Shown in pieces: positions 5,086-28,762 of a DNA stretch of 29,230 bases. The position numbers were made by a program, and so were the translations under genes. The stretch comes from a virus (lineage: Duplodnaviria; Caudoviricetes). Below the pieces are notes generated by a model. It was not told the DNA's origin and made no database searches. It saw only the letters and a list, made by a program, of their open reading frames with translations. The first letter of the stretch is position 1. Every line of letters begins with the position of its first letter. Location: positions 1-29,230 of the IMG/VR virus record IMGVR_UViG_3300048576_000607; one strand, given 5' to 3'.

Positions 5086-5086
5086 C

Positions 5087-5971
5087 ATGGAATTGCTCAA
5101 GACTTATTACGATGACAATGGCAAGATCATTCTTTCGCCGCAAGACATGTCGGCGAGAGAATTCTATAGAGACTATATCGCTGTACATAGATTTAACGAA
5201 ATGTTTGTTGGTTGCCCCCAGACTGTGAACCTTGAAAGAGTCATCACCGCAAACGGTTTTAAAGAGCGTTGGGGGAATACGCCTGGTGCTTTGCGAATAG
5301 GCTCTTCCAGTGATTACGACGTTATGATGTCTGACGGTCCATTTGGGACAAAAGTTTGCCAGCTTGTTGGAAGTTTTGTCGATGGAGGCGATATCTTTTC
5401 GAATAATTATCGAGAAACATACAATGCTGTTGGAAAAGAAATAAGGCTGAAAGGAAGAATAAAGTCTCCTACAAAACCATGGCGAATCGATCAATATGAT
5501 GAGAACGGTTATTATTTAAGTTCAACATATAATCCAGAAGAAGAATTTGGGATGTATTTATTTTCCTACGACTCCCAATCAAACCCATATGGGTGTATGG
5601 CCTACCTTTGGGTGTCAAACAGAGGTGGAGTCCGTGCCATAATACAAAATAGTGCCTCATCTGGAAACTCTTGTGATTTAAGCTATGGAGGATTTGTTTT
5701 TGACATAGCCATCGAAGCCTTGGATGGTTTGTGGCATGCCTGGGAATTACGTTTAAACCTAAGTACAAAGTTAATGTCTATTGTCCTTGATGGAACTACC
5801 GTCGCGAGTAGTGTTTACAACGAATCGAGCTTTTATAATTCAGATAGCTGGAATGGGACAAATCCATGGGACCCCAATGATAACTATATGGGAACATACT
5901 GGACAATGACAGGAGACAAGAAAACGATTTCTGAAATAGCGTTCGATTCTTACGAACTTGAGATAATATAA
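5087..5971 (+). CDS. Hypothetical protein, possible ConA-like lectin fold (294 aa, low GC)
   Basis: Starts 1 nt after the previous stop. DGLWHAWELRLN...MSIVLDGTTV resembles a LamG/ConA strand pair. AT-rich. Confidence 0.6.
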   Translation: MELLKTYYDDNGKIILSPQDMSAREFYRDYIAVHRFNEMFVGCPQTVNLERVITANGFKERWGNTPGALRIGSSSDYDVMMSDGPFGTKVCQLVGSFVDGGDIFSNNYRETYNAVGKEIRLKGRIKSPTKPWRIDQYDENGYYLSSTYNPEEEFGMYLFSYDSQSNPYGCMAYLWVSNRGGVRAIIQNSASSGNSCDLSYGGFVFDIAIEALDGLWHAWELRLNLSTKLMSIVLDGTTVASSVYNESSFYNSDSWNGTNPWDPNDNYMGTYWTMTGDKKTISEIAFDSYELEII

Positions 5972-6648
5972 TGCAATTTAATTACCCGCAAAGCATGTCT
6001 TGTCGGTTCGATGGCTTTCCCCAGCAAATAGAAATTCGTTGTGGGGATAGAGTGGCAGAGTTGTCACCACTTTTTTCTTTTGGAAGCAAGGTAATCTTAA
6101 GCCAAACACCCAGCAGCGGGCAAGAACTTGGGTGGATGCCGGACCAAGATGACTCTGATAGCTATTATGATGTTTCAATTGATTATAATAGCGCGACTGG
6201 CCAGTATACATACGTTAAAGTTTATAAGGGTGTAAACGATGTAAGAAAGATTTATACAGATACGGGGAATGATTGGACGTACGGGTTAAAAGTTTCATTC
6301 TTGGGTCGCGGTACATTTTTCACAAAAAGCAATACCGATCAGTTCTATTCGTTTTGTGTTTACAAGGCTATCAGGGTTGAATCAAGTAGTGGGAGTGTTG
6401 TTGAATTTGGAGACAATTTCACATGCGCAACTCAAGTGCCTATTTCTGTAGATTTAGCTTCAATGTACACTGTCCCATCTCCAACATATAACTACTCCGA
6501 CCCCATCCCAGGTAGTTTTGAACAGAATGGAGATATTTATATAGGTGGTGTAAAATTTACGATTTCGAACGGATCGACCATTGTTGTTCATTCTTCTGGT
6601 GGAGACATGAAGATTTCCTACATTAACGGTGGATTCATCATATACTAA
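5971..6648 (+). CDS. Hypothetical beta-rich protein (225 aa, low GC)
   Basis: TAATG stop/start overlap with the previous gene; Tyr/Ser/Gly-rich; longest ORF in an AT-rich stretch. Confidence 0.6.
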   Translation: MQFNYPQSMSCRFDGFPQQIEIRCGDRVAELSPLFSFGSKVILSQTPSSGQELGWMPDQDDSDSYYDVSIDYNSATGQYTYVKVYKGVNDVRKIYTDTGNDWTYGLKVSFLGRGTFFTKSNTDQFYSFCVYKAIRVESSSGSVVEFGDNFTCATQVPISVDLASMYTVPSPTYNYSDPIPGSFEQNGDIYIGGVKFTISNGSTIVVHSSGGDMKISYINGGFIIY

Positions 6649-6649
6649 T

Positions 6650-8383
6650 ATGGCCACTATTTTTAACTACATGGCCACAATGGAAGCCGTCGCCGTGGAT
6701 AATCCCACAGGCAACGGTTTTTGTGCGCTCCCGCAACCGATTGGTTCGGGGACGGCAACCTGTGGCGTGGTGGCCGCGATGGCACTGCCCATGCCGTCCT
6801 TGGAGGCGTCGGCGGATTGGGAACCCCTGGGCCAAGTTGTGCTCCCGGCACTGGATTCCACGGGTACCACCGCTGGCTATCATCCGGCCTGGGGAGCGAT
6901 CCTCTTTCCAGCGATGACGGCAGACGCCCAAGCCCATGCGGTGATCGAATCCAAAGCACTCCTGCCAACGTTGTTCGCGGTGGGCCATACCGGGGCGGCC
7001 GGCGAGATGGACGTGCTGGTGGACGCCAATGCCATGGCCGGCGCGCAGGGGATGTGTTCCTTTTCGCTTGATGCCCTCGGGGCGGATATTGGTCTGCATC
7101 GCCATGGAGCCGGGACCGCGACCATGCCCTTGGCCGCCGCATCGGGCCTTTCCTGCGGCCTGGACAAGCCCATCGACACCGGGGCAACGAGTGCCGCCGT
7201 CGTTGCCCTGCTCCAACAGGGCAACATGACCCTGGCCGATGCTGCCGCATCCATCTGCGCCTACGACGACACCGACGATGACCGGGCCATGTCGGTGACC
7301 TATTTCGTTTCCCACCTCATGGCCTACGTTCAGGACAGCGCGTCCGGCATCGGGGACCGCTGGACCTGCGCCCTGGCCACGTGGCTGCGAAAATACGGCG
7401 ACTGCGAGGACGGCGCGATCCTGATCCACGCGCTCCTGCTCGCGGCCGGCGTGAACCCGGGCCGCCTCCGCACAGCCTTCGGTTTGGCCATGACCACGGA
7501 CTTGGTCGCCTCCGGCCACGCTTGGGTCATGTATCGTCGCCTGACCGACGAAGAATGGATTCCCCTCGAGTGGACGTTCCAGCCGTCGCCCTATGATCGT
7601 GAGGCTTGGCAAATCAACCGCCAGGTGGACATGGCGGCCAGCTACACCAAGATTTCCTACATCCTGACCCACGAAGCCTTCTACGCGGTCAACGACGCCA
7701 ACTACATCCCCAAGCTGGCCGCGATTCGCTCCATGGCCACGGCTTCGTTCCCCTTGCCGACAGTCGCCGCAACGACAGGCCTGTCCGCGACTGCCGCCCT
7801 GAAGCTTTTCCAAGGAACATTGGCCACCACGTTGTTCGTCGCTGGCCAAGCCGGGGCACGGGCCTCTCTGCTCGTTGGCTTGCCATCTGTTGACGGCGAG
7901 GCTTCGCAGGTGGCCACCAGCCGGGGGGCGTGCGTGGCCCCGGCCCTGGCGGCGACAGGCGCGGCCGGGGCGCAGGGTGTGGCAAATCTGCCACAACTGC
8001 TTGCCACCGGCCAGTGTGGCCTGTCCGGCCGGGCGGATGTGGCCCTGCCCATACTGGCCCTGGCCGCGACCGGGACCGCCGCCGCCCTGGTCGCGGCCGA
8101 ACTTCTCCTGCCGCGCCCGACCGTGGCGGCCGTGGCCGGTGTCGGGGCTGTTTCGTCCGGCGAAACTCCCATGCCGGCCCTGCGTATGACCGGCCGGGCC
8201 GCGCAGGGCCCGGTGGGCCGTGCGGCGGTCACGTTGCCACGGGTTGCGCTTTGCGGCCTGGCCATGCCGGTGTCGGTCGGCGTTGGCGATTGCGAGCTTC
8301 CCGTGCCGGTTGTGCGCGCCCATGGCGGCAAGACCGTGTCTTGGGCCGAACCCATGACCTACAATCCCGAGAGGTGGACATGA
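6650..8383 (+). CDS. Ala-rich virion protein with an internal transglutaminase-like cysteine peptidase domain (about 577 aa)
   Basis: ATG at 6650, directly after the previous stop (6671 is an alternative start). Catalytic-type motifs GDCEDGA (Cys codon 7403), GHAWV (His codon 7517) and WIPLE (7556-7570), flanked by LP-x-L-x-A-x-G repeats. Confidence 0.7.
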   Translation: MATIFNYMATMEAVAVDNPTGNGFCALPQPIGSGTATCGVVAAMALPMPSLEASADWEPLGQVVLPALDSTGTTAGYHPAWGAILFPAMTADAQAHAVIESKALLPTLFAVGHTGAAGEMDVLVDANAMAGAQGMCSFSLDALGADIGLHRHGAGTATMPLAAASGLSCGLDKPIDTGATSAAVVALLQQGNMTLADAAASICAYDDTDDDRAMSVTYFVSHLMAYVQDSASGIGDRWTCALATWLRKYGDCEDGAILIHALLLAAGVNPGRLRTAFGLAMTTDLVASGHAWVMYRRLTDEEWIPLEWTFQPSPYDREAWQINRQVDMAASYTKISYILTHEAFYAVNDANYIPKLAAIRSMATASFPLPTVAATTGLSATAALKLFQGTLATTLFVAGQAGARASLLVGLPSVDGEASQVATSRGACVAPALAATGAAGAQGVANLPQLLATGQCGLSGRADVALPILALAATGTAAALVAAELLLPRPTVAAVAGVGAVSSGETPMPALRMTGRAAQGPVGRAAVTLPRVALCGLAMPVSVGVGDCELPVPVVRAHGGKTVSWAEPMTYNPERWT

Positions 8384-8829
8384 GCGCCAACACCCTGGGC
8401 ATCTCCCTGCCGGCCGATTCGCTGGCTTTGTCGCAGTACAGGAACCTCCCTTTCACGAGTTTTTTCCAGATGGACGGCAAGACCTACGGGTGCGCTCTGG
8501 ATGGGCTGTATCTGATCGGTGGCGACGATGATGCCGGCGAGACCATCCGGCCTGTGATCGAGGGGCCGAAGACCGATGCGGGTTCCGATGCCTACAAGCG
8601 GTTGCGCGGCGCGTTCGTGGCCGGCCGGGGCGTCGAAGGGCTGACGTTCTCCACGCGCCAAGGGGAAGGCGATTGGCGCGAGGCCCTGGCGGTCGGCGGC
8701 GGGCGTTTCGCCGTGGGTCGCGACAGCGCCGGTCGCGACATGCAGTGGCGCATCGAGGGCGACGGGTCGGACTTCGAGATCTCGTCCGTGACGCTAGACG
8801 TCCTCAACCTTGGCCGGGCCAGGAGGTAA
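8380..8829 (+). CDS. Phage structural hypothetical protein (149 aa)
   Basis: GAGGTGG RBS and ATGA overlap at 8380. Motif LSQYRNLPFTSF...YGCALDGLYLIGGDDDAG of a conserved phage tail-associated family. Confidence 0.7.
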   Translation: MSANTLGISLPADSLALSQYRNLPFTSFFQMDGKTYGCALDGLYLIGGDDDAGETIRPVIEGPKTDAGSDAYKRLRGAFVAGRGVEGLTFSTRQGEGDWREALAVGGGRFAVGRDSAGRDMQWRIEGDGSDFEISSVTLDVLNLGRARR

Positions 8830-11496: not shown

Positions 11497-14400
11497 ATGG
11501 CCATCGACCTTGCCAAGTACCGGGACGAGAATTCGGACTATTACGGGGGTTCCACGCTGGCCGACGTGGCGGCCGACCTGCACGAACGGAGCGGCGCGGC
11601 CGCCACCGGGGAGACGCTGGATCAGTTCAATAAGCGGTACGGCTTCGATGGCCAGATTGTCGAGGAGTCCAAACCCCAGGGAGGGGGCGGGTTCGGCTTA
11701 CAGGAGAGCAGGCCCACGGTGGGCGACTATGCCCGGTCGGTCGGCGTCGGCCTGGATCAGTTCGGCCAGGTGCTCGGGCGGGGCATGCAGTGGGCCGGCC
11801 TCGAACGGGCCGGCAAGGCCGTGGAGGACATTTACAAGGAGCGCGAGGCGGCCACGCGCGGCGAACAATCCGAGGCCTACAAGGCCGAGCTGGCCAAACC
11901 CTTCACGGAGAAGCGGACGGACGGCAGCGGCCTGTTCGGCTACGGCCTGGGCCCTGGTGCGACGTCGCCCGCCAAGATCGTCGGCTCCATCATCGAAAGC
12001 GCCCCGGCCATGGCCGCCGCCGGCGGTCCATCCGTGGCCATGACCAAGGGCCTGGTCGGGCTGGGCCTGAATGCCGGCGTGGCCGGCATCGTGGGTTCGG
12101 GATTCGGCGAGGGCGCGATAGGCGGCCTGTACGCGGCCAAGGAAGGCGAGGACCAGATACTGGAAGCGCCTGACGACGTGCTGCGCCAGCATCCCGATTA
12201 CCAGCAAGCCCTGGCCGAACTGCCGGCCGACATGCCCGAAGGGGCGCGCCACGCGGCGGCCAAGGCGTCGGTGGCCCGGAGCGAGGCTCTGCGTAGCGGC
12301 CTGCTTGTCGGCGGCACGACGGCCCTGCTCGGCGCGCCTTCCGGCCATTTCCTGGGCAAGTCCGTGGGCGGGGAGACCGGCAAGACGCTGCTGCGCACCA
12401 TCGGCAAGCAGGGCGCGTTGGAGGCCGTCCAGGAGGCCAGCCAGAACGCGGTGGAGAAGGTCATCCACAACCTGGCCGCCCAAAAGTACATCAACCCCGA
12501 CCAGGATCTGTTCGAGGGAGTTGTCGAAGAGGCCGCCAGCGGCGCGATCACAGGCGGCGCGATGGGCCTTGGCATGGGCGGCAGCGCCCATAACGCCGAA
12601 GCCCTCAAGTTTCGCAGAGAATTTCAGACGGAAACGGGCAAGGCCCTGAAAAGCGGGGCCGTGGGTCAGCTCGCGGACGCGGATCTGGACCGGGCCTATC
12701 AGGTGGCGGATGGACTGTACCGCGAGGAGCCGGAGGATGGCCTGCGGGAGGTCCTGCTTGGCCTCAACGCCGAACAGCGCCGCCGCCAAAACGAGGCGCG
12801 CGGTTTCCCTCTCAATGAGGTGCTGGCCGATGAAGAAGCGGCCCGGGCCGCAGCGGAGCAAACGGCCGAGGCGGATGCCGCGCCCGAGCCGGCGAGGCCG
12901 CCGGCCGGCCCGGACCGGGCGGCCGAACTGGCGAAGTTGTCGAAACGCCAACTCAACGACCTGGCCAGCGGGCTCGGTATCGGTACGCCCGGCCGGATCA
13001 AGCGCGACGCCCTGGTGGCGTCCGTGCTCCAGGCCGAGGAAGCGGCCCGGAAATGGAACGAACCGGATGCCGTGGAAGCCCGCTACCTGGAGGCCCACGC
13101 CGCGCCGTTCCCGGCCAGCCAGGATGATTTTCTCGGCCAGGCCGCGCCCACGCCGGTTGGCGCGGCCGAGGCCGTAGCGGAAACGGCCGTCCAAGAACCC
13201 CTTCTGCAGGATGGGTTTTCCGAGGGGGCCGCCCCTCCGGATAGGGCGGCCGAACTGACCGATCTGTCCCATTCCGAGCTGCGCCGCATGGCCGCCTCGC
13301 TCGGCATCGAAAAGCCGGGGCGCATGCGCCGCGACGCCCTGGTGCCGGCCATCGTGGCGGCCGAGGAGCGGGCCCGTCAATTTTATGAGCCCGAGAATAT
13401 CGAGGCCCGGTACCAGGAAGAGCACGCCGCGCCATTCCCCGGCCAGCTGGACGGCTTTTTGGACGGGGCCGCGCCCACGGGCCGCCGGGCGCGCTCGCGC
13501 AAGGTCGGTCCGGCCGCCACGGAGACGGTTCAAGCGTCCCAGGCCGCGCCCGGAGCGGCGACGCCCGAACAGGCTTCCACGGCGTCCCCCACGGGCGAGA
13601 TCCCGCTGGTCGAAGCCGGTGCGGAACCGGCCGCGCCCGAGGCGCAGGCCCCTTCCTCTGTCCCCCCGTCCCGGCCGGCCCTGGTGGAGCAGACGCCGGA
13701 AGGCGCGCTGCCGACCGGCGAGGTGCCGCTGGTGGAGGCCGGGCAAGAGATCGAAGCAGGAAACGGACAGCCGGAAAGCGCCCCCAACGTCGAAGCGCCT
13801 GGAAATGAAGCGGCCCATTCCCTCAACGAAACGCCCCCGGCGCGGCCGGCCGAGGACTTGGCGGCCAAATCCAAGCGGGAGCTGAACGCGCTGGCCGTCG
13901 CCCTCGGCGTGGAGCGTCCCGGCGGCATCCGGCGCGAAGATCTGGTAGGCCGCATCGAACAGGCCCGGCAGGAGCCGGCGGCCCAGGGGCAACCGGAAGC
14001 CCCGATCGGACAGACGCCGGCAGCGGCGCGGCCGCAGACGGAACAGGCGCGGCCGTGGATGCGGGAGGCCGGCGAAAAAGCCACGGTGGGGGCGTTGCTG
14101 CGCGCCGATGACCACATGGTGGCGCGCAAGTCTGTCGAAGGCCAGGTGGTCCATTTCGAGATCCCGGGGCTTGAGGATGTGGGTTTCGTGGCCCACCCCG
14201 ACCTGAACGGCGGCCAGGGCTGGACCGTCACGGAAACACAGTCCGGAACCGCCGCCGTGATGGGAGCCGCGACCAAACAGGAGGCCCTGAAGGCGGTCCA
14301 TGACCGCCTGGCCGGATTCGATGTCCAGACGTTTCGCGCCAACCGGGACGATTTGGTTGCCCGTTTAGGAAGCGCCGAGCAGACGACGCCTGCACAGCCG

Positions 14401-17400
14401 GCCACCAAACCCCAGGAACAGACGATGCAGCCGGCCCCGGGAGCGTCCGCGCCCAGCCAGGAAGGCCCGCGCTACGCCATGTCGCTTCGGGAGACGACGC
14501 ACGCCAAGCGGGGCCATCCCCTCTATGTCGTGACCCTGGACGAACGGACGTCGAGCGAGGCCTACCAGGGTCTCAAAAAAGAATTTACCAAGCTTGGCGG
14601 CTACTGGTCGCGCTACAAGGGCCGGGGTGCGATTGTAGGCATCCAGTTCACGGACAAGGCCAAGGCCGAGGCGTTCCTGGATCGGTTCGGCAAAAAGAGG
14701 GCGGTCCAAGAGGCCGCCACGGAACGTGCTCTCGCGCCGGCCGAGGAGCCCCGCCCGTCGTCCTCCCCGGAACAGCCCACCGCGAAGCCCCTTGGCGTCA
14801 ACAGCGAAGGCAACCAGGTCTTCGAGGACGAACGCGGCAACCGTTCCGTGCGCGAGGGTGAGGTCCACATCAAGGCCCCGGTTCCGGTCCGGCCGACCCG
14901 GGCCGGGGTGGTGGCCGAGGCGCATGGACCGGAGCAGCTTTACCGGGACGGGCACAGGGAGTTTCTGACCAAGGAGGAACTGGCCGCGTTCGAGCGCCCG
15001 GAGTCCTCGACACCGGCCGGCGAAGGCCTTAATTCTACCAAGGAAGACCAAGGAGCGCGCGATGACGATGCCCGTGCACACCCTGACCGATCCCGACCGG
15101 ATGTGGGACTGGAAGGCCCATCTGACGTGGCTCCTGGAGAACAAGCCCCAGGAGACGTGGGAGGACTTCCAGACGAATCCGGACGGCCTGAAAGAGGCGA
15201 TCGACCGGAAGACGTTGCAGTCGTCAAACGTCCTGGCGCGTCTCAAAGCCCGGAATCTCCCGGAGGACGCGATTCGGGAGGCGATGCTGGCGGTGGTCGC
15301 GCCGTCGGACGGCCCGGCCTTGAACGCGGAGAATCCGCCCGAACCCCTGCCCCGGCAAAAGGAAAGCCGGATCTGGGCGTGGTGGGAGAACCTGCCGCCC
15401 CGAAAGATCACGGTCCTTCCGGACGGAACCTATCGCGAGACCATAACCACCGCATAGCCCCGGACGACGTGCTGGTGCCCGGCGGCAACGCCACCCGGGC
15501 CAAAGCCAATCTCTCCGCTGTCCGGCTCCTCAAAGAGCTGGAGGCGCAAAAGCGTCTCCCCACGCCCCAGGAACGCAAGGTCCTGGCCCAATTTTCGGGC
15601 TGGGGCTCTCTCGCCGAAGAGGTCTTCAAAGCCGATTTCGAGAATCTCGCCAACCGCTACGGCGGCGAGGTGCCCGCCTCCGAGCGAAACCGCTATCACC
15701 AGCCGTTCCTGGAGAAGTACGACGCCTGGCGGCGCAGGTACGGCGAACTCCATCCCAACATCGGCGGCCTCTTCTCCAAAGAGGAATGGGACGCGGCCAA
15801 GCGTTCGACGCTCAACGCCCACTACACCGACCGGGACGTCGTCACGGCCATGTGGGACATGGTCCAGCAGTTGGGCTTTACCGGCGGCCAGGTGGTGGAG
15901 CCGGCCGCCGGCATCGGCCACTTCTTCGGCCTGATGCCCGAGAACCTGGCCGCCGCCTCCCATCTCAAGGGTGTGGAGCTGGATTCCGTCACCGGCCGGT
16001 TGCTGGACAAGCTCTACCCCGCCGCCGACATCCAGGTCACCGGGTTCCAGGATGCCAAGCGCATGGGGAACAACACGGCCGATCTGGTCATCTCCAACGT
16101 CCCGTTCGGCGACTTCCCGGTCTACGACAAGGCCCACAAGGACTATTCGGGCTGGAGTATCCACAACTACTTTCTGGCCAGGGCCCTGGACGTGGTGCGG
16201 CCCGGCGGCCTGGTCGCGGCCATCACCTCGCACTACACCATGGACACCACCCGGTGGGGCAAGGTCCGGGAGTATCTGGCCGGCAAGGCCGACCTGGTTG
16301 GCGCGGTCCGCCTGCCGGGCACGGCCTTTTCCAAGAACGCCGGCACCGACGTCACGACCGACATCCTTGTCCTGCGCAAGAAGGACGGACGGCCTTTCGA
16401 GGGCCAGCCCTGGCGGCAGGTTGAGAAGGTGGAAACGCCCGAAGGCCAGGCCGGGGTCAACGAATACTTTGTGGCTCACCCGGAAATGGTGCTCGGCAGA
16501 CATTCCCTGACCGGCTCCATGCACGGCGGCCTCGAATACACCGTCCTGCCGGACAAGACCCGCCCGATCATCGAGCAGGTGCGGGAGGCCGTGGCGCAGC
16601 TGCCCGTGGACATCATGGGCGAAGGGGCGGCCAACCAGCCGAAGCCCTTGCCCCAGGCCCTTGGCGAACGGGCCGACGAAGACATGCGGGAAGGGACCCT
16701 TGTCGTCCGGGACGGTAATGTCTTCGCCGTAGAGGACGGACGACTCGCGCGGCCGGAATGGCAGGACGGCAAGCTGGCCGAATCCCGGTCGGCCATCGCC
16801 CGCCAGTATGTCGGGGTCAAGGCGGCCGCCCAGGACCTGGTCCGGGCCATGCTGTCCGAGGAATCGACCGATGCGGACGTCGCCGCGAAACAAAAAGAGC
16901 TTGGCCGGCTCTATGAGGCCTTCGTCAAGAAGCACGGGCCGTTTCTCGACAACCGGAAGCTGACGTTTCTGCGTGACGACGTCGAATACCCGAACGTCCT
17001 GGCCCTGGAAAAGAAGGAAGATGCGGTTGATGGCGAACGGAAGACCATCGTTACCAAGGCCGACATCTTCACCAAGCGGACGATCCGACCCTTTGTCGAG
17101 CCCAGGACCGCCGCATCGACCGAGGATGCCGTCAAGATAAGCCTGCTCTACCGGGGCAATGTGGACGCGGCCAAAATCGGCGAGCTGCTCGGCCTGCCCG
17201 AGGCCGAAGCCAGGCGGCAGCTCGTGGAGACCGGCGCGGCCTATGAAAACCCGGAGACGGGGCTGCTCGAAACGCCGCAGGAATACCTGTCCGGCAACGT
17301 GCGCCAAAAGCTGCAAGTCGCCAGGGACAGCGCGGAAAGCAACCCGGACTACAAACGCAACCTGGACGCCCTGGAGGCGGTGCAGCCGCCCAAGAAGCCC

Positions 17401-20400
17401 GTCAGCCGCATCGACGCCCGCCTGGGCGCGACCTGGATTCCCGATAACGTGGTGTCCGCCTTCATGGAGCACATGGGCGTGCGGTGGGGCAAGGCGGTCC
17501 AGACCCGCACCAGGGCCGGCGAGGACGGCCTTTCTTCCTGGGACGTCAAGGGGTCCCTGACCCAGGAGGCCCAAAACCGCTGGACCGTGGGCGACACGGA
17601 CCTCCTCGACATCCTCAAGGATTCGCTGAACCTCAAGCTGTCCAAGGCCTACAAGTATCTTCCGGACGGCAAGGGCGGCCGGGAGCGGGTGGTCGACCAG
17701 GAAGGGACGCTGCTTGTCCAGGAAAAGCAGAAGGCCCTCCAGGAGGAGTTTCTCAAATTCGCCCGCGAGACGCCCAAGGTCGCCACGGAGTTGGAGAACC
17801 TTTACGACGAGCGGTTCGGCGGGCAGATCCCCCGCGAGTACAACATCCCGGACGTGGCCCATTATCCGGGCGCGGTCGATACCATCACCCTGCGCGACCA
17901 CCAGAAACGCGGGGTCTCGCGCGGGCTCCAGGAAAATACTCTGTTTGCCCACGGCGTCGGGGCCGGCAAGACCTACCTGGTCACGACCCTGGCCATGGAG
18001 GCCCGGCGGCTCGGCACGGCCAAAAAGCCCATGATCGTGGTCCAGGGGGCGACCCTGGAACAGTTCGCCAGCGCGTTCAAGCGGCTGTATCCGGCCGCCA
18101 ACGTCCTGGCCCCCAATGCCGAAGACCGGACCAGGGCCAACCGGCAGCGCCTGCTCTCCCAGATCGCCACGGGCGATTGGGACGCCGTGATCGTGCCCCA
18201 CTCCTTTTTCAACGGCCTGGCCATTTCCCCGGAGCGGGAAGCGGCCTTTATCGAGGAGGACCTGGACGCCCTGCGCGCGGATCTGCGCGAAGCCCAGGCC
18301 GACAAGAGCCAGGAACGGGGCAGGAAGTCGCCACGGGTCAAGCAGATCGAAAAGATGATGCTCAAGCGCGAGGCGCGGCTCAAGGCCCTGCTCGACGCCC
18401 GCAAGGATGAGAACGTCTTTTTCGAGGACACGGGCGTGGACATGCTGGTGGTGGATGAGGCCCACGCCTACAAACGCGGCGATTTCGTCACCAAGATGGA
18501 CAACGTGAAGGGCCTGGACCGGGATTCCTCCCAGCGGTCCATGCAGCTTCTTTTGAAGTCCCGGTACATCGCCGAGAAGACCGGCGGGAAAAACGTCCAC
18601 CTGGCCACGGGGACACCGGTTTCCAATACCCTGGCCGAACTGTGGACCGCCCTGCGCTACATCCGCCCGGACCTCCTGGAGCGGTTCAACGTCACGCAGT
18701 TCGACGACTTCGCCTCGACCTTTTGCGCCACCAAGACCGACATCGAGGAGACGGCCACGGGCGACTACAAGCCCGTGACCCGGTTCAACCGCTACCAGAA
18801 CCTGGGCGAGCTCATCTCCATGTGGAAGGCCGGCGCGGACATCGTGCTGGCCGAAGACCTGGACTACATCAAGGACATTCCGAAGCTTAAAGGCGGCCGG
18901 CCCCAGGAAGTGTCCCTGGAGCGCAACCCGGAACTGACCGGCTACATCCAGCACCTCAAGCAGTGGCGGATGGAGTGGGAGCACCTGTCCGGCAAGGAGA
19001 AGCGCGAGCAGTCCCATGTGCCGCTTCTCATTTACAACCTGGCCCAAAAGGCCGCCCTGGACATGCGGCTGGTCAACCCGGAACTGGAAGAGGCCCCGGG
19101 CGGCAAGCTCGACGCGGCGGCCGGGGAGATCTTCAAGCGGTATCAGGCCCACCAGGACACCCGGGCGGCCCAGGCGGTTTTCAGCGACATCTACCAGTCG
19201 TCGGACAAGTCCTTTAATATCTGGAAGGACCTCAAGGCCAAGCTCGTGGCCAAGGGCATCCCGGCCAAAGAAATCGCCATCATCTACGACTTCAACGAGA
19301 AGGCCCGGGAAAAGCTCTTTGAAGCGGTCAATGTCGGCGATGTCCGGGTGGTGATGGGGTCCACGGAAAAGCTCGGCGTGGGCGTCAACATCCAGGAACG
19401 CCTGGCCGCCCTGCACCACCTGTCCCCGCCGGTCCGGCCCATGGATTGGGAGCAGCGCAACGGCCGCATCCGCCGCCAGGGCAACATGTTCGACGAGGTG
19501 GAGGTCCTGGCCTACGGCGTGAAAAACACGCTCGACTCGGTCAGCTTCAACATCCTCCAGAACAAGCAGAAGTTCATCAACCAGCTCCTTCGCGGCGAGA
19601 TCGACGGCGACGTGATGGAGAATCCTTTCGACGACGTCCAGCTCTCCTTCGAGGACATGATGGCCGCCTTTTCCGGCAACCCGCTGGCCATGGAGCGGGT
19701 GAAGCTGGAAGGCCAGGTGCGCGACCTGGGGCGGCTGCGCCAGGCCTTCCAGGACGAAAAGGCCGGCCGCATCCGCCAGCTCGACCTTTTGCGCGAGAGC
19801 CGGATTCCGGACATCGAAAAGAGCCTGGCCGCAGCGGAAAAGGAAGTGGACCGGTTGCGGGATTCCTTCCCGGACCTCAAGGCGGAAACCTTCACGTTAA
19901 AAGACGGCACGTTCGAGAAGAAGGATTTCACCAGGAAGCTGACGGATTGGTACGACGGGATCAAGGGCCGCCTGGAAAAGGAGACGGTGGGCAAGACCGT
20001 GGCCCACTACGAAGGGGTGCGCAGCGGCGGCAAATTCGGCGGCGCGGTCACCTTCGAGACCGGCGGCCATGAGGTGGAAATCAAGGTGCGCCCCGTACCG
20101 TCCAGCCTGGTCGGCGCGGACTCCAACCGGGGCGACGGCCTGGCCAAGGTCACCGAGGCCACCCTGACCGGCTCTTTCACCGTCACGGCCAAAAGCGGGG
20201 AAACCCTTTTCGAGCGCAATTTCGGCGCGCCTTCCGGATTTGTCCGCTCCTTCAACAACGGCCTCGAGGAGCTTTCCCGGGAGCCCGAGCGCATCCAGGG
20301 CCAGCTTGACCGGGCCCGGGAGTCGGCCACGTCCCTGGAGCGGCTCGTGGAGGAGAAATTCTCCAGAGAAGCGGAATACGAGCAAGCCTCCGAGCGGTTG

Positions 20401-23400
20401 CGGGAGGTCGAGGAGGAACTGAAAAAGGCCAGGAACGAGGACTTGGCCGCTGCGGCGCAGGCGGCGGAACCAGCCGGGGAAGAAGACGGCGGCCCCGCTG
20501 CCCGGTTGTTCCGGGCCGAGGCCAGCGCCGCCAAGGTCGCGCCGATAGCCAGGGCCGTGGCTGAGGAGTTGCGCAAGGGAATCGCGCAGTTCCCGGCGCT
20601 TCGCGGCATCGTGGACATTTACCATGCCGAGTCCGACCTGCCGGCGAATCTGCGGCGCGAGGTCGAGGAGGCGGGCGTTTCGGGGCGGTTCTACGGGGCC
20701 TATAACCCCGAAACCAAGCGCATCGCGCTTGTAGCCGGGAATATCCCCACGGAAAAGGCCGGGCAAGTCGCGTTCGTTCAAACGTTGCTGCGCCACGAGG
20801 GCCGGCACGGCGGGCTCGACCTGGTGCTCGGGGGCCGGGAGGCGCGGCAGGAGTACATGACCCGGGCCGCGCATGCCATGCCGCGCCAGGTTTCCCTGTG
20901 GCTGGAACGCCAAGGCCTCGACTCCACGCGCGCGACCCGGGCCGAAGCGGCCGAGGAGATACTCGTTTCCTGGGCCAAGGACGGCACGGTCCACCGGGTG
21001 CTGGATCGCCTGCTGGCCAAAATGGCCGAGTGGGTCCGTTCCGTTTTCCCGAGTCTGAAGCTGACCAAGGCCGAGCTGCGCCAGATCCTGGCGTCGGCCG
21101 ACGACTTCGTGGACGGCAAGGGGCTGAATTTCGTCGCGCCGGTCGGCCAGTCGTTCGCCGCCGCGCCGGCCTTCGCGCGCGAGGAGACGCGGTTTGCCCG
21201 GGCCGGCGAACTGGCCGGCGTGCCGGCGGAAAAAGAAGACGTGGCCACCTGGTTCAAAGGCGAGGTCACGGCCCATGTCCGTTCCTTCCTGCCGACCCTG
21301 CGCGGGACGCTCAAGGAGACCGCCACTCTCGGCAAAATCCTGCGGTCGCCGGAGTATTGGAAGCATCCGGTCCTTAAGCGGCTCTACGAGATTTTCCGCG
21401 ACCGCACGGACCAGGCCCATGAGCTGCTGCACGCGGCCTTCGACCTGGGCGATGGCCGCACCATCGCCCTGGCGGCCAAGGAAGTCTTCAAGGAGAAGGG
21501 GCAACGGGAAATCCTGAACCGGGGCGTGGACTACGCCGACGTGAACGAGGTCAAGCCCGAGGAAATGGAGACATGGTTCCGGGAGCATGGCGCGACCGAA
21601 GCGACCATCGGCCTTTGGCGCTCGATGCGCGACGGCTACGACATGCTCCTCGATGCGCGGCTGAAATCCTACCGCGCGCTCATGGGCAAGGCCCGGGACA
21701 CCTACGGCCGCAAGATCGTCCGGCGTTTGATCGAAGCCGGCATTCCGGCCAAGGAAGCCAGGACGTTCGATGCGAAGGCCTACCATGCGGACAAGACCCT
21801 TTCCGACGAGCTTGCGCCCTACGCTCGGCAGGTGGCCGGAGTGGTGGCCACGGCGCGCAAAGCCGGCATCACCATCCAGGGCCAGCTTGCCGACGTGCGG
21901 TTGACTGGCGAGGACGGCGCGTCGTTCTCGCTCAAGGAGCTTATTGAGCGCATGGGGCAGCTTCGCGGCTTCTACGCGCCACGTTTGCGCGAAACCGGTG
22001 AGTATGTGGTGCGCGGGCAGCGCACGGGCCCGGACGGCGAACTGGAGCGTTTCCGGGCGCACAAGGAGTGGCGTTCCGGGGCAGAATCGCTACGGGCGAA
22101 GATGGAGCGGACCGGCTGGGACATGGAGCCGGTCGGGCGGATCGAGAAATTGCCCGAGGCCACGCAGGGAATCGTCAAAGCCCTGGAACTGGCCAAGACC
22201 GTGGAAAGCGCCGTCAACCAAGTGGGCGAGGACGTGGACGCCGGGCTGGTCCAGGAGCTGCTCGAAACCCTGGCCGACGAGGTCAAGGCGCGGGGCTTCA
22301 GGGCGCAGTCCATCCGGCGCACCGGCCGCCACGGCGACGTGGTGCAAGGTTATTTCAAGGACGCCCTGGAGCGGTACACCCGGTACGCCGGGGCCACGGC
22401 CTACGGCCTGGCCAAGATGGAGGCGGCGGGAAAGGCGGCCAAGGCCCTTTTCGGCCAGGACGGCGCTACGGGTATCGACATCCGCAAGGAACGCGACGTC
22501 TACCGGCTGGCCGTGGATTATCTTGCGGAGAACCTACGCAACGCCGAGGCCGGGGACAGGGTCTTCAGCCTGGCCAAGTCGGTGGCCAGCCTCAAATACC
22601 TGGGGCTCAATCCCAGGTCTGCCTTGGTCAACCTCTCCTCCATGGCCACCTCCGTGCCGGCGGCGCTTCACGCCTACGCCCTGGAGGGCAAGGGCGGCTG
22701 GGCCAGGATCGGCCGGGAGACGGCCCGGGCCATGGCCGACTACCTGGGCGTGATGACCGGCAAGTGGGGCTCGTTTACGGCGGACGAAAAGCGGTTCCTG
22801 GAGGGCATCCGCAAAGAATCCCTGGACGATCCGCAATTCGCCCGGGAGGCCCTGTCCACCTACCGCGACACGGCCGGGAAAAGCTGGTCCTGGCTCATGG
22901 GCAAAACCCTGGCCCTTTTCGGGGCGACCGAGCAGCTCAACCGGGGTTCGACGCTCCTGGCCGCCTACCGACTGGCCAGGCAAGCCGGCGCGGACCACGA
23001 GACGGCCATGGCCCGGGCGCGCGAGACGTCCGACCGGGCGCACGGCGTCTACGACCGGGCGACCCAGCCCGCCTGGACCTGGGGCACGTCGGCTGGGTCC
23101 CGGCTTGGCCAGAGTTGGTACGTCTACAAGAAATATGGCCACAACTACCTCCAGCTCGTCCATGAGCTCTTCCAGAAAAAAGACTGGCAGGCGGCTACCT
23201 TCGCCCTGGCCGCGCCCATGGCGCTCGGCGGCTTGGGAAGCCAGGTCCTGACGTCCATCGTCAAGGCGTTGTTCGTTGCCGGCGGTTCCGATGATGACCC
23301 GGAAAAATGGCTCTATGACTTCATCCGCCGCAACATGGGCGACAAGGGGGAGGAATTGGCCCGGTTCGGCCTGCTGGGGCTCGTGACCGGCACGGACATG

Positions 23401-24342
23401 TCCGGCTCCATCGGCACCATGATCGACACGCCGGACACCGTAACCGACGTGCTCGGCCCCATGGGCGGCATGGCCCGGGACGTGCTGGCCGGCATCGGCT
23501 TTTTCGCGGCCGGCCAGCCGGGCCGGGGCGCGGAAAAAATCCTGCCGACCGGCCTGTCCAAGATCCTGCAAGCCGCGCGCGAATCCTCCCAGGGCGTGTC
23601 CACCTCGAAGAACTTCCCTGTCGTGGGGCCGGACGGCAAGCGGCTGATGCCGACGGACGGCGAGTCCGCGGCCAAGGCGCTCGGCTTCCGCCCGGCGCGT
23701 GAAGCCACGGCCCGGGCCCGGACCTCGGAGGCCATCGAGGAAGAGAAGCGGTGGTCCGAAAAGCGGGACAATATCTACTCGCGATTCCGGGCGTTCACGC
23801 TGGCCGGCGGCAAGGACGCCGACGAGCGGCAGTCCCTGGTCGCGGTCGTGGCCGAGTACAACAAGGGCGTGGCCGATGCGGGCCTCTCCGGCCGGGTGTC
23901 CTATATCACCCGCGAGTCGCTCCTGCGCCAGGCCGAACGGTTGGCCCGGCCGACGAAACGCGAGCAGGCGCGGCTTGGCGACAAACCCGGCGTGGCCAAA
24001 TCCTATGCGTCGGTTTCCGGCGAAGACATCGAGGATTTTTCCCACCCCTATTTCGCCGTGCGCCGGGACTATGCCGAAGCCAAGGAACGCTATGACGCTC
24101 TGCGCCAGGCCGGGGACCTGGAGGGAGCGGCGGTCCTGCGCGGCGAAGCCCGGTTGCCGCTCCTGCGCAGGCTGATCGGGCGCGTCTCTTCCGTGCGCGA
24201 GGAGATGGGCAAGGTGCGCTCCAGCCGTCTGTCGGACGAGGTGAAGTCGCGCCGGCTGGAAGTGCTTCGGGAACGCGAGCGGCTGGAAATGGACAGGGCC
24301 GCGCGCACGGCGTCGGGAATGCAGGCGGCCGGAAGGGAGTGA
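11497..24342 (+). CDS. Giant polyvalent DarB-like virion protein (4281 aa): Rho_N-like repeats, N6-adenine DNA methyltransferase, SF2/SNF2-type helicase, HExxH metallopeptidase-like domain, PLxRFG-like C-terminal region
   Basis: GGAGGG RBS; uninterrupted 12.8-kb ORF. MTase motif I VEPAAGIGHF (about 15895) and motif IV SNVPF (16093-16107). Helicase Walker A AHGVGAGKT (17947), Walker B VDEAH (18451), motif III ATGTP (18604), motif VI QRNGRIRRQGN (19453). HEGRH at 20794 with downstream EAAEE. FYAPRLRETGEYVV at about 21970. Confidence 0.9.
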   Translation: MAIDLAKYRDENSDYYGGSTLADVAADLHERSGAAATGETLDQFNKRYGFDGQIVEESKPQGGGGFGLQESRPTVGDYARSVGVGLDQFGQVLGRGMQWAGLERAGKAVEDIYKEREAATRGEQSEAYKAELAKPFTEKRTDGSGLFGYGLGPGATSPAKIVGSIIESAPAMAAAGGPSVAMTKGLVGLGLNAGVAGIVGSGFGEGAIGGLYAAKEGEDQILEAPDDVLRQHPDYQQALAELPADMPEGARHAAAKASVARSEALRSGLLVGGTTALLGAPSGHFLGKSVGGETGKTLLRTIGKQGALEAVQEASQNAVEKVIHNLAAQKYINPDQDLFEGVVEEAASGAITGGAMGLGMGGSAHNAEALKFRREFQTETGKALKSGAVGQLADADLDRAYQVADGLYREEPEDGLREVLLGLNAEQRRRQNEARGFPLNEVLADEEAARAAAEQTAEADAAPEPARPPAGPDRAAELAKLSKRQLNDLASGLGIGTPGRIKRDALVASVLQAEEAARKWNEPDAVEARYLEAHAAPFPASQDDFLGQAAPTPVGAAEAVAETAVQEPLLQDGFSEGAAPPDRAAELTDLSHSELRRMAASLGIEKPGRMRRDALVPAIVAAEERARQFYEPENIEARYQEEHAAPFPGQLDGFLDGAAPTGRRARSRKVGPAATETVQASQAAPGAATPEQASTASPTGEIPLVEAGAEPAAPEAQAPSSVPPSRPALVEQTPEGALPTGEVPLVEAGQEIEAGNGQPESAPNVEAPGNEAAHSLNETPPARPAEDLAAKSKRELNALAVALGVERPGGIRREDLVGRIEQARQEPAAQGQPEAPIGQTPAAARPQTEQARPWMREAGEKATVGALLRADDHMVARKSVEGQVVHFEIPGLEDVGFVAHPDLNGGQGWTVTETQSGTAAVMGAATKQEALKAVHDRLAGFDVQTFRANRDDLVARLGSAEQTTPAQPATKPQEQTMQPAPGASAPSQEGPRYAMSLRETTHAKRGHPLYVVTLDERTSSEAYQGLKKEFTKLGGYWSRYKGRGAIVGIQFTDKAKAEAFLDRFGKKRAVQEAATERALAPAEEPRPSSSPEQPTAKPLGVNSEGNQVFEDERGNRSVREGEVHIKAPVPVRPTRAGVVAEAHGPEQLYRDGHREFLTKEELAAFERPESSTPAGEGLNSTKEDQGARDDDARAHPDRSRPDVGLEGPSDVAPGEQAPGDVGGLPDESGRPERGDRPEDVAVVKRPGASQSPESPGGRDSGGDAGGGRAVGRPGLERGESARTPAPAKGKPDLGVVGEPAAPKDHGPSGRNLSRDHNHRIAPDDVLVPGGNATRAKANLSAVRLLKELEAQKRLPTPQERKVLAQFSGWGSLAEEVFKADFENLANRYGGEVPASERNRYHQPFLEKYDAWRRRYGELHPNIGGLFSKEEWDAAKRSTLNAHYTDRDVVTAMWDMVQQLGFTGGQVVEPAAGIGHFFGLMPENLAAASHLKGVELDSVTGRLLDKLYPAADIQVTGFQDAKRMGNNTADLVISNVPFGDFPVYDKAHKDYSGWSIHNYFLARALDVVRPGGLVAAITSHYTMDTTRWGKVREYLAGKADLVGAVRLPGTAFSKNAGTDVTTDILVLRKKDGRPFEGQPWRQVEKVETPEGQAGVNEYFVAHPEMVLGRHSLTGSMHGGLEYTVLPDKTRPIIEQVREAVAQLPVDIMGEGAANQPKPLPQALGERADEDMREGTLVVRDGNVFAVEDGRLARPEWQDGKLAESRSAIARQYVGVKAAAQDLVRAMLSEESTDADVAAKQKELGRLYEAFVKKHGPFLDNRKLTFLRDDVEYPNVLALEKKEDAVDGERKTIVTKADIFTKRTIRPFVEPRTAASTEDAVKISLLYRGNVDAAKIGELLGLPEAEARRQLVETGAAYENPETGLLETPQEYLSGNVRQKLQVARDSAESNPDYKRNLDALEAVQPPKKPVSRIDARLGATWIPDNVVSAFMEHMGVRWGKAVQTRTRAGEDGLSSWDVKGSLTQEAQNRWTVGDTDLLDILKDSLNLKLSKAYKYLPDGKGGRERVVDQEGTLLVQEKQKALQEEFLKFARETPKVATELENLYDERFGGQIPREYNIPDVAHYPGAVDTITLRDHQKRGVSRGLQENTLFAHGVGAGKTYLVTTLAMEARRLGTAKKPMIVVQGATLEQFASAFKRLYPAANVLAPNAEDRTRANRQRLLSQIATGDWDAVIVPHSFFNGLAISPEREAAFIEEDLDALRADLREAQADKSQERGRKSPRVKQIEKMMLKREARLKALLDARKDENVFFEDTGVDMLVVDEAHAYKRGDFVTKMDNVKGLDRDSSQRSMQLLLKSRYIAEKTGGKNVHLATGTPVSNTLAELWTALRYIRPDLLERFNVTQFDDFASTFCATKTDIEETATGDYKPVTRFNRYQNLGELISMWKAGADIVLAEDLDYIKDIPKLKGGRPQEVSLERNPELTGYIQHLKQWRMEWEHLSGKEKREQSHVPLLIYNLAQKAALDMRLVNPELEEAPGGKLDAAAGEIFKRYQAHQDTRAAQAVFSDIYQSSDKSFNIWKDLKAKLVAKGIPAKEIAIIYDFNEKAREKLFEAVNVGDVRVVMGSTEKLGVGVNIQERLAALHHLSPPVRPMDWEQRNGRIRRQGNMFDEVEVLAYGVKNTLDSVSFNILQNKQKFINQLLRGEIDGDVMENPFDDVQLSFEDMMAAFSGNPLAMERVKLEGQVRDLGRLRQAFQDEKAGRIRQLDLLRESRIPDIEKSLAAAEKEVDRLRDSFPDLKAETFTLKDGTFEKKDFTRKLTDWYDGIKGRLEKETVGKTVAHYEGVRSGGKFGGAVTFETGGHEVEIKVRPVPSSLVGADSNRGDGLAKVTEATLTGSFTVTAKSGETLFERNFGAPSGFVRSFNNGLEELSREPERIQGQLDRARESATSLERLVEEKFSREAEYEQASERLREVEEELKKARNEDLAAAAQAAEPAGEEDGGPAARLFRAEASAAKVAPIARAVAEELRKGIAQFPALRGIVDIYHAESDLPANLRREVEEAGVSGRFYGAYNPETKRIALVAGNIPTEKAGQVAFVQTLLRHEGRHGGLDLVLGGREARQEYMTRAAHAMPRQVSLWLERQGLDSTRATRAEAAEEILVSWAKDGTVHRVLDRLLAKMAEWVRSVFPSLKLTKAELRQILASADDFVDGKGLNFVAPVGQSFAAAPAFAREETRFARAGELAGVPAEKEDVATWFKGEVTAHVRSFLPTLRGTLKETATLGKILRSPEYWKHPVLKRLYEIFRDRTDQAHELLHAAFDLGDGRTIALAAKEVFKEKGQREILNRGVDYADVNEVKPEEMETWFREHGATEATIGLWRSMRDGYDMLLDARLKSYRALMGKARDTYGRKIVRRLIEAGIPAKEARTFDAKAYHADKTLSDELAPYARQVAGVVATARKAGITIQGQLADVRLTGEDGASFSLKELIERMGQLRGFYAPRLRETGEYVVRGQRTGPDGELERFRAHKEWRSGAESLRAKMERTGWDMEPVGRIEKLPEATQGIVKALELAKTVESAVNQVGEDVDAGLVQELLETLADEVKARGFRAQSIRRTGRHGDVVQGYFKDALERYTRYAGATAYGLAKMEAAGKAAKALFGQDGATGIDIRKERDVYRLAVDYLAENLRNAEAGDRVFSLAKSVASLKYLGLNPRSALVNLSSMATSVPAALHAYALEGKGGWARIGRETARAMADYLGVMTGKWGSFTADEKRFLEGIRKESLDDPQFAREALSTYRDTAGKSWSWLMGKTLALFGATEQLNRGSTLLAAYRLARQAGADHETAMARARETSDRAHGVYDRATQPAWTWGTSAGSRLGQSWYVYKKYGHNYLQLVHELFQKKDWQAATFALAAPMALGGLGSQVLTSIVKALFVAGGSDDDPEKWLYDFIRRNMGDKGEELARFGLLGLVTGTDMSGSIGTMIDTPDTVTDVLGPMGGMARDVLAGIGFFAAGQPGRGAEKILPTGLSKILQAARESSQGVSTSKNFPVVGPDGKRLMPTDGESAAKALGFRPAREATARARTSEAIEEEKRWSEKRDNIYSRFRAFTLAGGKDADERQSLVAVVAEYNKGVADAGLSGRVSYITRESLLRQAERLARPTKREQARLGDKPGVAKSYASVSGEDIEDFSHPYFAVRRDYAEAKERYDALRQAGDLEGAAVLRGEARLPLLRRLIGRVSSVREEMGKVRSSRLSDEVKSRRLEVLRERERLEMDRAARTASGMQAAGRE
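12910..13974 (+). repeat. Three Rho-N/HeH-like helical repeats inside the giant protein (about 12910-13152, 13237-13479, 13846-13974)
   Basis: ELAKLSKRQLNDLASGLGIGTPGRIKRDALVASV / ELTDLSHSELRRMAASLGIEKPGRMRRDALVPAI / DLAAKSKRELNALAVALGVERPGGIRREDLVGRI. The first two also share the downstream EARY.E.HAAPFP...FL..AAPT. Confidence 0.75.
15062..15457 (+). CDS. Nested +1-frame gene inside the giant ORF (131 aa, weakly TnpV-like helical protein)
   Basis: AGGAG at 15051-15055, 6 nt before the ATG. Most codons in this frame end in G/C and give a globular-looking protein (WKAHLTWLLENKPQ...AIREAMLAVV), while the giant-ORF frame here reads as G/R/P/D low-complexity linker. Confidence 0.7.
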   Translation: MTMPVHTLTDPDRMWDWKAHLTWLLENKPQETWEDFQTNPDGLKEAIDRKTLQSSNVLARLKARNLPEDAIREAMLAVVAPSDGPALNAENPPEPLPRQKESRIWAWWENLPPRKITVLPDGTYRETITTA

Positions 24343-27894: not shown

Positions 27895-28187
27895 TGCTAA
27901 CGTCAAAAGTCGCCTACCGGCCGGCCAGGCGGGGGCTGACCGATCCCCTGGCCGTGTTGCAGTCCAAGGGCGCGCGCGTGTCCCTGGTTGACGGGAAGGT
28001 TCAATTGCTTTTCGACAACCATGTGGGCCGGGATATCAGAAAACGGTGCTACGAGTATGCCGCCCATTTCGATGCGTTGCTCAAGCTGCAACTCGACGTG
28101 CCCCCTGGCGAAAATCCGCGCACGATCCAGCAGCTGGTGGGCGTCGGCCGGGTCCGGTGGACGGGCCAGCGGTTCGAGATCCCATGA
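27894..28187 (+). CDS. Small hypothetical protein, TubC-N-like (97 aa)
   Basis: GGAGG RBS and TAATG overlap at 27894. LAVLQSKGARVSLVDGKVQL resembles the TubC N-terminal docking-like motif seen in phage proteins. Confidence 0.55.
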   Translation: MLTSKVAYRPARRGLTDPLAVLQSKGARVSLVDGKVQLLFDNHVGRDIRKRCYEYAAHFDALLKLQLDVPPGENPRTIQQLVGVGRVRWTGQRFEIP

Positions 28188-28417
28188 CGTTGCCGCGTGG
28201 CCTGCCTTTGCCGGCGGACTGGTCGATGCTCCCCAGGGAGCGGCAACTCCGACTCTGGCTGCGGGGCCAGGGGCTCACGTTATCCAGTCTGGCCGAGAGG
28301 ATGGGCGTGCACAAGTCAGCGTTGGGAAAGTGGCTGGTAAGCTGCTCGGAACCGTTGCCGGAAAAAAGAAAGGCGGAATTACTCGCCTTGGGGCTTCCCG
28401 AAGGGTGCGTGCCGTAA
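28184..28417 (+). CDS. XRE/Cro-like helix-turn-helix protein (77 aa)
   Basis: ATGA overlap at 28184. LRLWLRGQGLTLSSLAERMGVHKSALGKWL is a clear HTH pattern. Confidence 0.75.
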   Translation: MTLPRGLPLPADWSMLPRERQLRLWLRGQGLTLSSLAERMGVHKSALGKWLVSCSEPLPEKRKAELLALGLPEGCVP

Positions 28418-28762
28418 CGACTAGTGCAGATTTTGAACCCTTCATTTCCCCTGGTCGTTGTTAACATGCTGTTTTAAAAGTAAATTTTTTTGAAAGCATT
28501 TCCTCTGAGCCACAGCTTTGCCCTCTTGGCAGTTTGTTCTCGACCGTTTAAGGAGGGAGCCAGGGTTTTTCGGGAGGATCGGCAACTTTTCACATCCGGG
28601 GTTGCCGACGTTTTGGAATCGGAATTCTATATAGGGTAAATGACTGTAGTTGCTATGTATAATTACTGCGCCATATATTCATAGGTCTTATTGATAGATG
28701 TTTTAGAATGCTTCCGGCGTCAAGAGGTATTTCCTGTCTGCAATAAAACGAGGGTGGCCTAT

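Follow-up and report, generated by a model that had tools for sequence, protein, structure and literature searches.

The question raised by this locus is whether the gene of a giant virion protein carries a second gene in another reading frame and, if so, what the product of that second gene might do. The window, by which we mean the whole 29,230-base virus record analysed here, holds a podophage-type virion module with adaptor, head closure and structural genes, and the host gene of the overlap encodes a DarB-like polyvalent virion protein (11497..24342, + strand, 4281 aa) that matches the PHROG DarB-like family phrog_10089 with an E of 0 over residues 1126-3042. Its LPD36 and adenine methyltransferase module lies at 15457..16500 (+ strand; EPAAG at residue 1468 and NVPF at residue 1534), where the PHROG match runs from residue 1320, and a SNF2-type helicase/translocase lies at 17830..19690 (+ strand, ends approximate; GVGAGKT at residue 2153, DEAH at 2320 and QRNGRIRRQG at 2653). 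The LPD36-like helix and the methyltransferase and SNF2 motifs are found in order in one chain, which is the arrangement of the DarB-type dyad, and a genome search places the nearest relatives of the methyltransferase in Syntrophaceae and a deltaproteobacterial bin, at 51-53%.

Other features of the giant and its surroundings are recorded here as observations in their own right. The N-terminal region of the giant has three Rho_N-like repeats (about 12928-13041, 13252-13362 and 13858-13974), two stretches passing for Pfam PF07498 (E 4.6e-16) and the third recognised by eye, which likely bind nucleic acid, while the C-terminal third holds a zinc-peptidase-like motif, HEGRH (20794-20808), comparable to the metallopeptidase domains of polyvalent proteins. 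Three ORFs at 3262-6648 (607, 294 and 225 aa), which have about 41-53% GC within a virion module of 66% GC and gave no match in Pfam and PHROG searches, may represent a tail or receptor-binding module of recent acquisition. Among the structural genes, 6629-8383 encodes a protein of 584 aa, rich in Ala and Gly, whose central domain is transglutaminase-like (PF01841 at 24 bits, with a cut-off of 23), and the right end (28046-29230) has a small HTH gene and a lower-GC ORF weakly matching O-antigen ligase (E 0.0067).

The nested gene occupies 15062..15457 on the + strand, in the +1 frame of the giant, and runs from an ATG at 15062 to a TAG at 15455-15457. Its 131-aa product, a predicted helical protein of the TnpV superfamily, is hereafter referred to as P0001. 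The first-pass annotation had described an AGGAG, an ATG and a Trp-rich frame of 131 codons with the motif HLTWLLENKP, and the sequence bears this out, with 7 Trp and with the AGGAG at 15051..15055 (+ strand), 6 nt 5' of the ATG and retained in two close relatives (L004 and L006). The region of the AGGAG is weakly folded, at −11.3 kcal/mol against a mean of −22.4 kcal/mol, and 1.5% of 197 windows are equally weak. The same annotation held that codon bias changes frame exactly here, and the frame-specific GC3 over 15062-15457 agrees, being 0.85 in the nested frame and 0.47 in that of the giant. The stretch is unique within the giant, whose GC3 is always 0.81-0.92 at the other alternative-frame ORFs of at least 100 aa (n = 18). 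Similarly, when 131-codon windows are stepped along the giant, the codon log-likelihood of the +1 frame exceeds that of frame 0 only in the three windows overlapping the ORF (+0.31 vs. −0.41 at the nested ORF). Opposite the nested gene (15061..15456, + strand; residues about 1189-1320) the giant stays open and reads as a linker of G/R/P/D/S/E, unconstrained in sequence, a composition that confirms the open G/R/P/D-type linker noted earlier; the nested stop lies at the start of the methyltransferase region, as had also been noted. Pooled over 50 loci, hydrophobic residues make up 11% of the giant's frame and 30% of the nested frame.

To see which of the two products is under constraint we turn to dN/dS in both frames, a check that the first-pass annotation had proposed, using the window and three close relatives (L004, L005 and L006; 6 pairs, 127 gap-free codons). 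The nested frame gives 0.17-0.31 in 6/6 pairs and the methyltransferase 0.11-0.18, and the nested dS is close to the methyltransferase dS in most pairs. Across the overlap the long frame has an apparent dN/dS of 1.2-2.45, which, since the count ignores the overlap, is read only as “unconstrained,” and it drops to 50% identity where the nested protein holds 76%. These substitution patterns show that the constrained product is the small protein and that the linker of the giant is unconstrained; on the long frame, selection acts to keep stops out and nothing more. Taken singly, the window's open long frame is unremarkable, with a P of 0.18 under synonymous resampling. Over 43 nested ORFs, the long frame contains 0 stops against 153.7 expected and the third frame 266 against 198 expected, counts that overstate independence because the loci are related to each other. 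The control of 20 Pfam TnpV loci from 5 Firmicute genomes behaves in the same way for its 10 nested copies, which have 0 long-frame stops, whereas 9/10 stand-alone copies carry 1-8 stops in the corresponding frame. Both frames are open beyond chance and the nested product is under selection, the combination by which overlapping genes are recognized. The nested-frame dN/dS, the family-wide lack of stops, the conserved +1 position and the stand-alone control together make it nearly certain, on sequence grounds, that 15062-15457 is truly dual coding, in line with the original claim.

What kind of protein is encoded is less direct. A search of 1.84 billion representatives with P0001 gave 57 matches at E ≤ 0.001, 2 of which are spurious long repeat proteins, and most homologues are 96-144 aa long with 26-45% identity. 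The structural model, calculated from an alignment of 55 rows (A1), has a pLDDT of 93.3, with predicted helices at residues 15-27, 29-38, 40-63, 68-79 and 98-109 and a small sheet that would link the two ends. The family alignment contains a single near-invariant residue, and net charge ranges from −17 to +7, i.e., mildly and variably acidic. P0001 has no match in Pfam at E ≤ 1 or in PHROG, Foldseek with the model gave none in PDB or BFVD at E ≤ 0.001, a PDB sequence search with A1 returned just designed repeats and noise, and the ESM Atlas gave no usable match.

The first-pass annotation called the protein loosely TnpV-like, and this stands as remote homology while the Pfam cut-off is not reached by P0001 itself, which falls below the gathering score of 27 bits for TnpV (PF14198). 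TnpV is listed for 6/55 family members (best E 0.015), and among the nested ORFs of related loci it appears at E ≤ 0.23 in 11/24 and attains the Pfam cut-off in 2/24. HHalign of A1 against the canonical TnpV alignment gives 88.6% (E 2.6e-6, 64 columns), and a second profile (A2), from whose build canonical TnpV was excluded, recovers TnpV loci down to an E of 6e-8. These profile comparisons support P0001 as a remote TnpV relative, with homology at the profile level of the helical core. The helix-Pro-helix-long helix core of TnpV from Tn4451/Tn4453 is common to P0001. Unlike TnpV, P0001 is without the N-terminal Y-x3-GDY hairpin (in alignment A3 and the TnpV model, absent from A1), its central helix is shorter, its C-terminal arm is Pro/Trp-rich and includes a hairpin, and it is encoded inside a phage virion gene, not next to a serine recombinase. 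A subfamily with the motif IANRWMxGWP sits in the same +1 slot (nested ORFs of L047, L022, L052, L053 and L071), its tie to TnpV coming only from profile A2, which included those ORFs.

When 48,161 chains were searched by structure, the first hit to the P0001 model was PDB 2apl (Z 5.4, rmsd 2.0, 62 aa), which is DUF1896 (PF08989)/PG0816, and the same entry ranked first, tied with others, for the TnpV model (Z 5.6, rmsd 2.2, 60 aa). Both matches span about 60 residues, in a putatively shared N-terminal fold; the C-terminal half differs, and Z is in the range of common helical arrangements. HHalign against DUF1896 is weak (6.9-12.8% for the nested family and 0.5% for TnpV), and a Pfam search for DUF1896 gave no match in P0001 and its nested relatives. 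With a weak Z and a poor profile match, the link of P0001 and TnpV to DUF1896 is tentative. Homology of P0001 to P1 Ulx was considered as well and rejected, with HHalign at 0.1-0.2% and the position of Ulx, downstream of darB, also unlike.

The nesting occurs far beyond the window. Our methylase-helicase set comprises 94 loci after removal of exact duplicates, with near-copies remaining. The search of the pre-methyltransferase linker for the nested product, which had likewise been proposed as a check, gives a TnpV-like profile match upstream in 71/94 loci and in +1 within an open long frame in 70/71, a tally that is partly circular because 39 ORFs built profile A2; the canonical TnpV profile alone matches 33/71. 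The one exception (L119) is a broken locus, and the 23/94 loci without a match include some cut by contig ends or flanks. The enzyme is present without a nested match in P1, Lalka8, PHB04, Tripp and a Streptococcus element, as well as in three loci from Acetobacteraceae and one unclassified proteobacterium. In PHB04 (L041:12253-12579) and Lalka8 (L038:12147-12524), both elements without the nested gene, we observe Ulx-like genes with (Y/F)G(P/V)YW 3' of DarB, the one in PHB04 being annotated merely as hypothetical.

In 15 named phage records the ORF is unannotated in 9 (Bcep22, VvAW1, LASTA, Gerry, Pavtok, Atu_ph08, Y7, 8P and USP_18), fused in PBC5 and absent in 5, so the expectation that annotation would miss the gene holds for 9/9 intact named podophage records. 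The PBC5 record (L039, about 8100-8470) has one frame break just 5' of the nested ATG relative to Atu_ph08. As a result the N-terminal part runs on into the nested frame (gp22), and the methyltransferase goes unannotated. A sequencing error or a natural variation would each explain the break, which probably put the TnpV-like domain into phrog_938; the matches of 3/24 nested relatives to phrog_938, via its C-terminus, probably stem from it.

Outside these phages, Firmicute conjugative elements carry a true Pfam TnpV nested in +1, 1.2-3 kb 5' of the methyltransferase, and a Clostridium plasmid has TnpV nested likewise in an annotated helicase gene. In Verrucomicrobia and Acidobacteria the long frame begins just about 60-150 nt 5' of the small gene and still crosses it, and nesting is retained at loci where the giant has merely a 20-50 residue N-terminal piece. 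Directly 5' of the same enzyme in Bacteroidales is a DUF1896 gene, which overlaps the enzyme's start by 11-14 nt in 10/11 evaluable loci (13 examined, 2 at contig ends); here it is a separate gene, and its frame offset differs from that of the nested case. A search for DUF1896 gave nothing in 5 genomes holding loci and a match in just 2/61 order-level genomes. An origin of the overlap in the upstream extension of such a tandem pair is unsupported, as the frame offsets differ. A metagenome scan gave 2 loci only, repeating L004 and L005. A quick tree, which carries long-branch warnings and does not give the order of events, has nested loci on all main non-P1 branches and is consistent with one old origin of nesting.

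Next to the nested gene, the long frame contains QL(D/E/S)LF-type peptides in 7/50 loci compared with 1/281 control windows, located just 5' of the nested ATG in L079-L082 and L086 and just 3' of the nested gene in L135, with none near the window's copy. We take QL(D/E/S)LF to be a sliding-clamp binding motif, in which case the stretch of linker in the overlap may serve to hold a clamp anchor onto the enzyme.

Signals for separate expression of the nested gene are found at many loci. Words resembling a Shine-Dalgarno sequence precede 38/50 nested starts compared with 9.4% of 709 control ATGs, and sigma70-like sites scoring at least 9/12 are present in 13/52 upstream regions vs. 2.8% of 3279 control windows, while 39/52 regions score below 9. 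Many nested copies have their own promoter-like site. In the window's subfamily, a perfect TTGACA is seen in six members (L010-L013, L015 and L017), where 20-35 nt separate the end of the second hexamer from the ATG. The window itself has a weak candidate for an internal sigma70-type promoter at 15007..15036 (+ strand; TCGACA at 15007-15012, then 16-18 nt and an AT-rich hexamer; 8/12), which is one of 6 places in the giant scoring at least 8, and a stricter scan for promoters at the window's nested gene gave 0 sites. The corresponding site scores 9/12 in L004 and 8 in L006 and is absent in L005. RNA contigs of close relatives start 3, 7 and 4 nt before the ATG in 3/4 runs from 2 studies, whereas DNA contigs X2 and X3 extend upstream past it; RNA run X18 does not cover the nested gene. 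These RNA contig starts are a weak hint, since the runs were selected for the stretch, contigs cannot show starts and DNA is possible in the libraries.

Two readings would do away with an independent small gene. A chance ORF in GC-rich DNA, or a frame pair made by an assembly frameshift, might be suspected from the 18 further alternative-frame ORFs in the giant and the lack of a Pfam or PHROG match for P0001, but it has to contend with the codon-bias flip, the purifying selection, the diverged homologues, the confident fold and the conserved position. An assembly artefact is further opposed by an independent 26.5-kb contig (X2), which covers 14733-15900 with frame-preserving indels only; contig X1 is identical to the window, may be its source and is not counted as independent. 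The dN/dS values and the conservation over the 94 loci refute this reading, to which we give almost no credence. The second frame could instead serve recoding, with frameshifting or coupled re-initiation giving a shorter or fused methylase-helicase. The nested stop does abut the methyltransferase, and the window has GTG codons at +14 and +20 nt; in Bacteroidales the ATG of the enzyme is overlapped by DUF1896, and the PBC5 record joins the N-terminal part to the nested frame. The coupled re-initiation that the first-pass annotation envisaged is nevertheless unsupported for want of a conserved restart codon: no more than about 30 nt from the nested stop, an in-frame GTG/TTG is found in 8/43 loci and an ATG in 0/43. 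The Firmicute nested genes are 1.2-3 kb away from the enzyme. In-phase slippery heptamers occur in just 2/52, and the PBC5 fusion is one frame break that its relative Atu_ph08 does not have, which leaves recoding highly improbable.

What, then, would a separate small protein do? Judged by gene context, the role of partner that the first-pass annotation suggested (as chaperone, inhibitor or packaging factor) is plausible. The small gene tracks the enzyme across phages and conjugative elements, often with its own promoter-like site, and from this we infer a partner made apart from the late operon; elements delivered in virions and elements that conjugate share the link, which hence points to the enzyme and not to the capsid. 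From this distribution we lean slightly toward the small protein being a partner of this methylase-helicase, and find it possible, though short of probable, that the partner restrains or switches off the enzyme and is made in the resident cell. Such a partner would require that both products are translated, that host sigma70 polymerase can transcribe the small gene while the late or transfer operon is off, that the small protein binds the methylase-helicase, and that binding keeps the enzyme inactive or turns it off once it has entered; the giant would then work mainly when delivered with DNA into a new host. Several observations sit poorly with this restraint. The window's own promoter is weak and its counterpart missing in L005, with three quarters of the upstream regions (39/52) scoring below 9, and enzymes without a nested match exist in P1, Lalka8, PHB04, the Streptococcus element and the Acetobacteraceae and unclassified proteobacterium loci. 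The wide range of charge and the single near-invariant residue offer little for a conserved interface. Half of the examined Firmicute TnpV copies stand alone on small elements, which suggests activity without the giant in cis. Prediction of a complex between P0001 and giant residues 1321-2100, a span that ends before the helicase (alignments A1 and A4), gave no answer in either direction, at a score of 0.00 in two runs, the controls not being folded.

If the gene is real, two other roles compete with a restraining partner. P0001 could act as a chaperone in folding or loading and deliver the giant to the virion or conjugation channel, in the manner of P1 Ulx but without homology to it. A small helical protein tied to a delivered enzyme fits this role, P1-type elements with a downstream ulx are without the nested gene, and the JC1 paper reports no Ulx homologue in Bcep22-like phages (PMC9144972). 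It seems quite unlikely all the same, considering that P0001 has no likeness to Ulx by HHalign, that a promoter of its own is superfluous for a factor that the late mRNA of the giant would supply anyway, and that one family serves phages and conjugative elements, whose loading machines differ. Alternatively, the protein could have a job independent of the giant (as a transfer or recombination accessory, a regulator or an anti-defence factor) and be locked in by an overlap that is hard to undo. Mobilisable elements commonly carry tnpV on its own, an earlier proposal had TnpV assisting excision (PMC3158075), and DUF1896 often lies close to AcrIIA9 homologues (PMC6739104). The nested gene also has expression signals of its own. 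Set against this are the un-nested DUF1896 gene, which still adjoins the same enzyme, the persistence of nesting where the upstream piece is just a short peptide, and the recurrence of the link on all main non-P1 branches of the quick tree even though a nested gene could be copied out, and we regard an independent job as somewhat unlikely. The restraining-partner reading can also be widened, to a form that we hold doubtful, in which TnpV/DUF1896 would be the control subunit that DarB-type injected methylase-translocases have so far seemed to lack, an off-switch of ancient origin lying within its target gene under its own promoter and common to phages and conjugative elements of several phyla. 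Resident elements would then be immune to their own enzyme and to those that relatives bring in, and mobilisable transposons would have pirated their stand-alone tnpV as a copy that acts on the enzyme of the helper element.

Overlapping genes, the TnpV superfamily and the DarB dyad are each already known; what is described here is a real, widespread and unannotated nested gene. In prokaryotes it is rare for a long same-strand nested gene to be retained across phyla. The gene provides a candidate partner for DarB-type antirestriction in Bcep22-like phages that is removable without touching the giant, together with a testable context for TnpV, a common gene, and a tentative TnpV-DUF1896 link. 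The tnpV gene is found in 16/24 MOBQ2 IMEs with unknown function (PMC12084326), and pipelines count TnpV as a transposase (PMC13639185, PMC9815147). Full-text literature searches gave no description of this nesting, and mention in supplements or in the Bcep22 genome or P1 Ulx papers is possible.

Among known systems, the closest to the giant is DarB of P1 and the polyvalent dyad, with which it shares the dyad, the motif order and the location in a virion module. The LPD36-methylase-SNF2 dyad of polyvalent proteins has been proposed to methylate and shield entering DNA (PMC5512222), in a paper whose main text leaves TnpV, DUF1896 and frameshift all unmentioned. The homologue of the giant in JC1 is virion-associated, and the same source reports that none of P1's accessory Dar proteins were identified in Bcep22-like phages (PMC9144972). 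The darB gene of P1 has no nested gene and has ulx downstream, unlike the window's giant. For the nesting itself the closest precedent is the spanin gene Rz1, embedded in Rz. Rz1 lies in the +1 frame of Rz, and the Rz and Rz1 products bind each other. By analogy, the nested and host products here may work together. Like Rz1 (PMC9144972), P0001 is encoded on the same strand as its host gene, fully nested in another frame and with its own start. P0001 is an unrelated protein, and without a cysteine it is no lipoprotein, unlike Rz1; its frame is the constrained one while the host frame is a linker, and the overlap, about 100-130 codons long, is found across phages, conjugative elements and plasmids.
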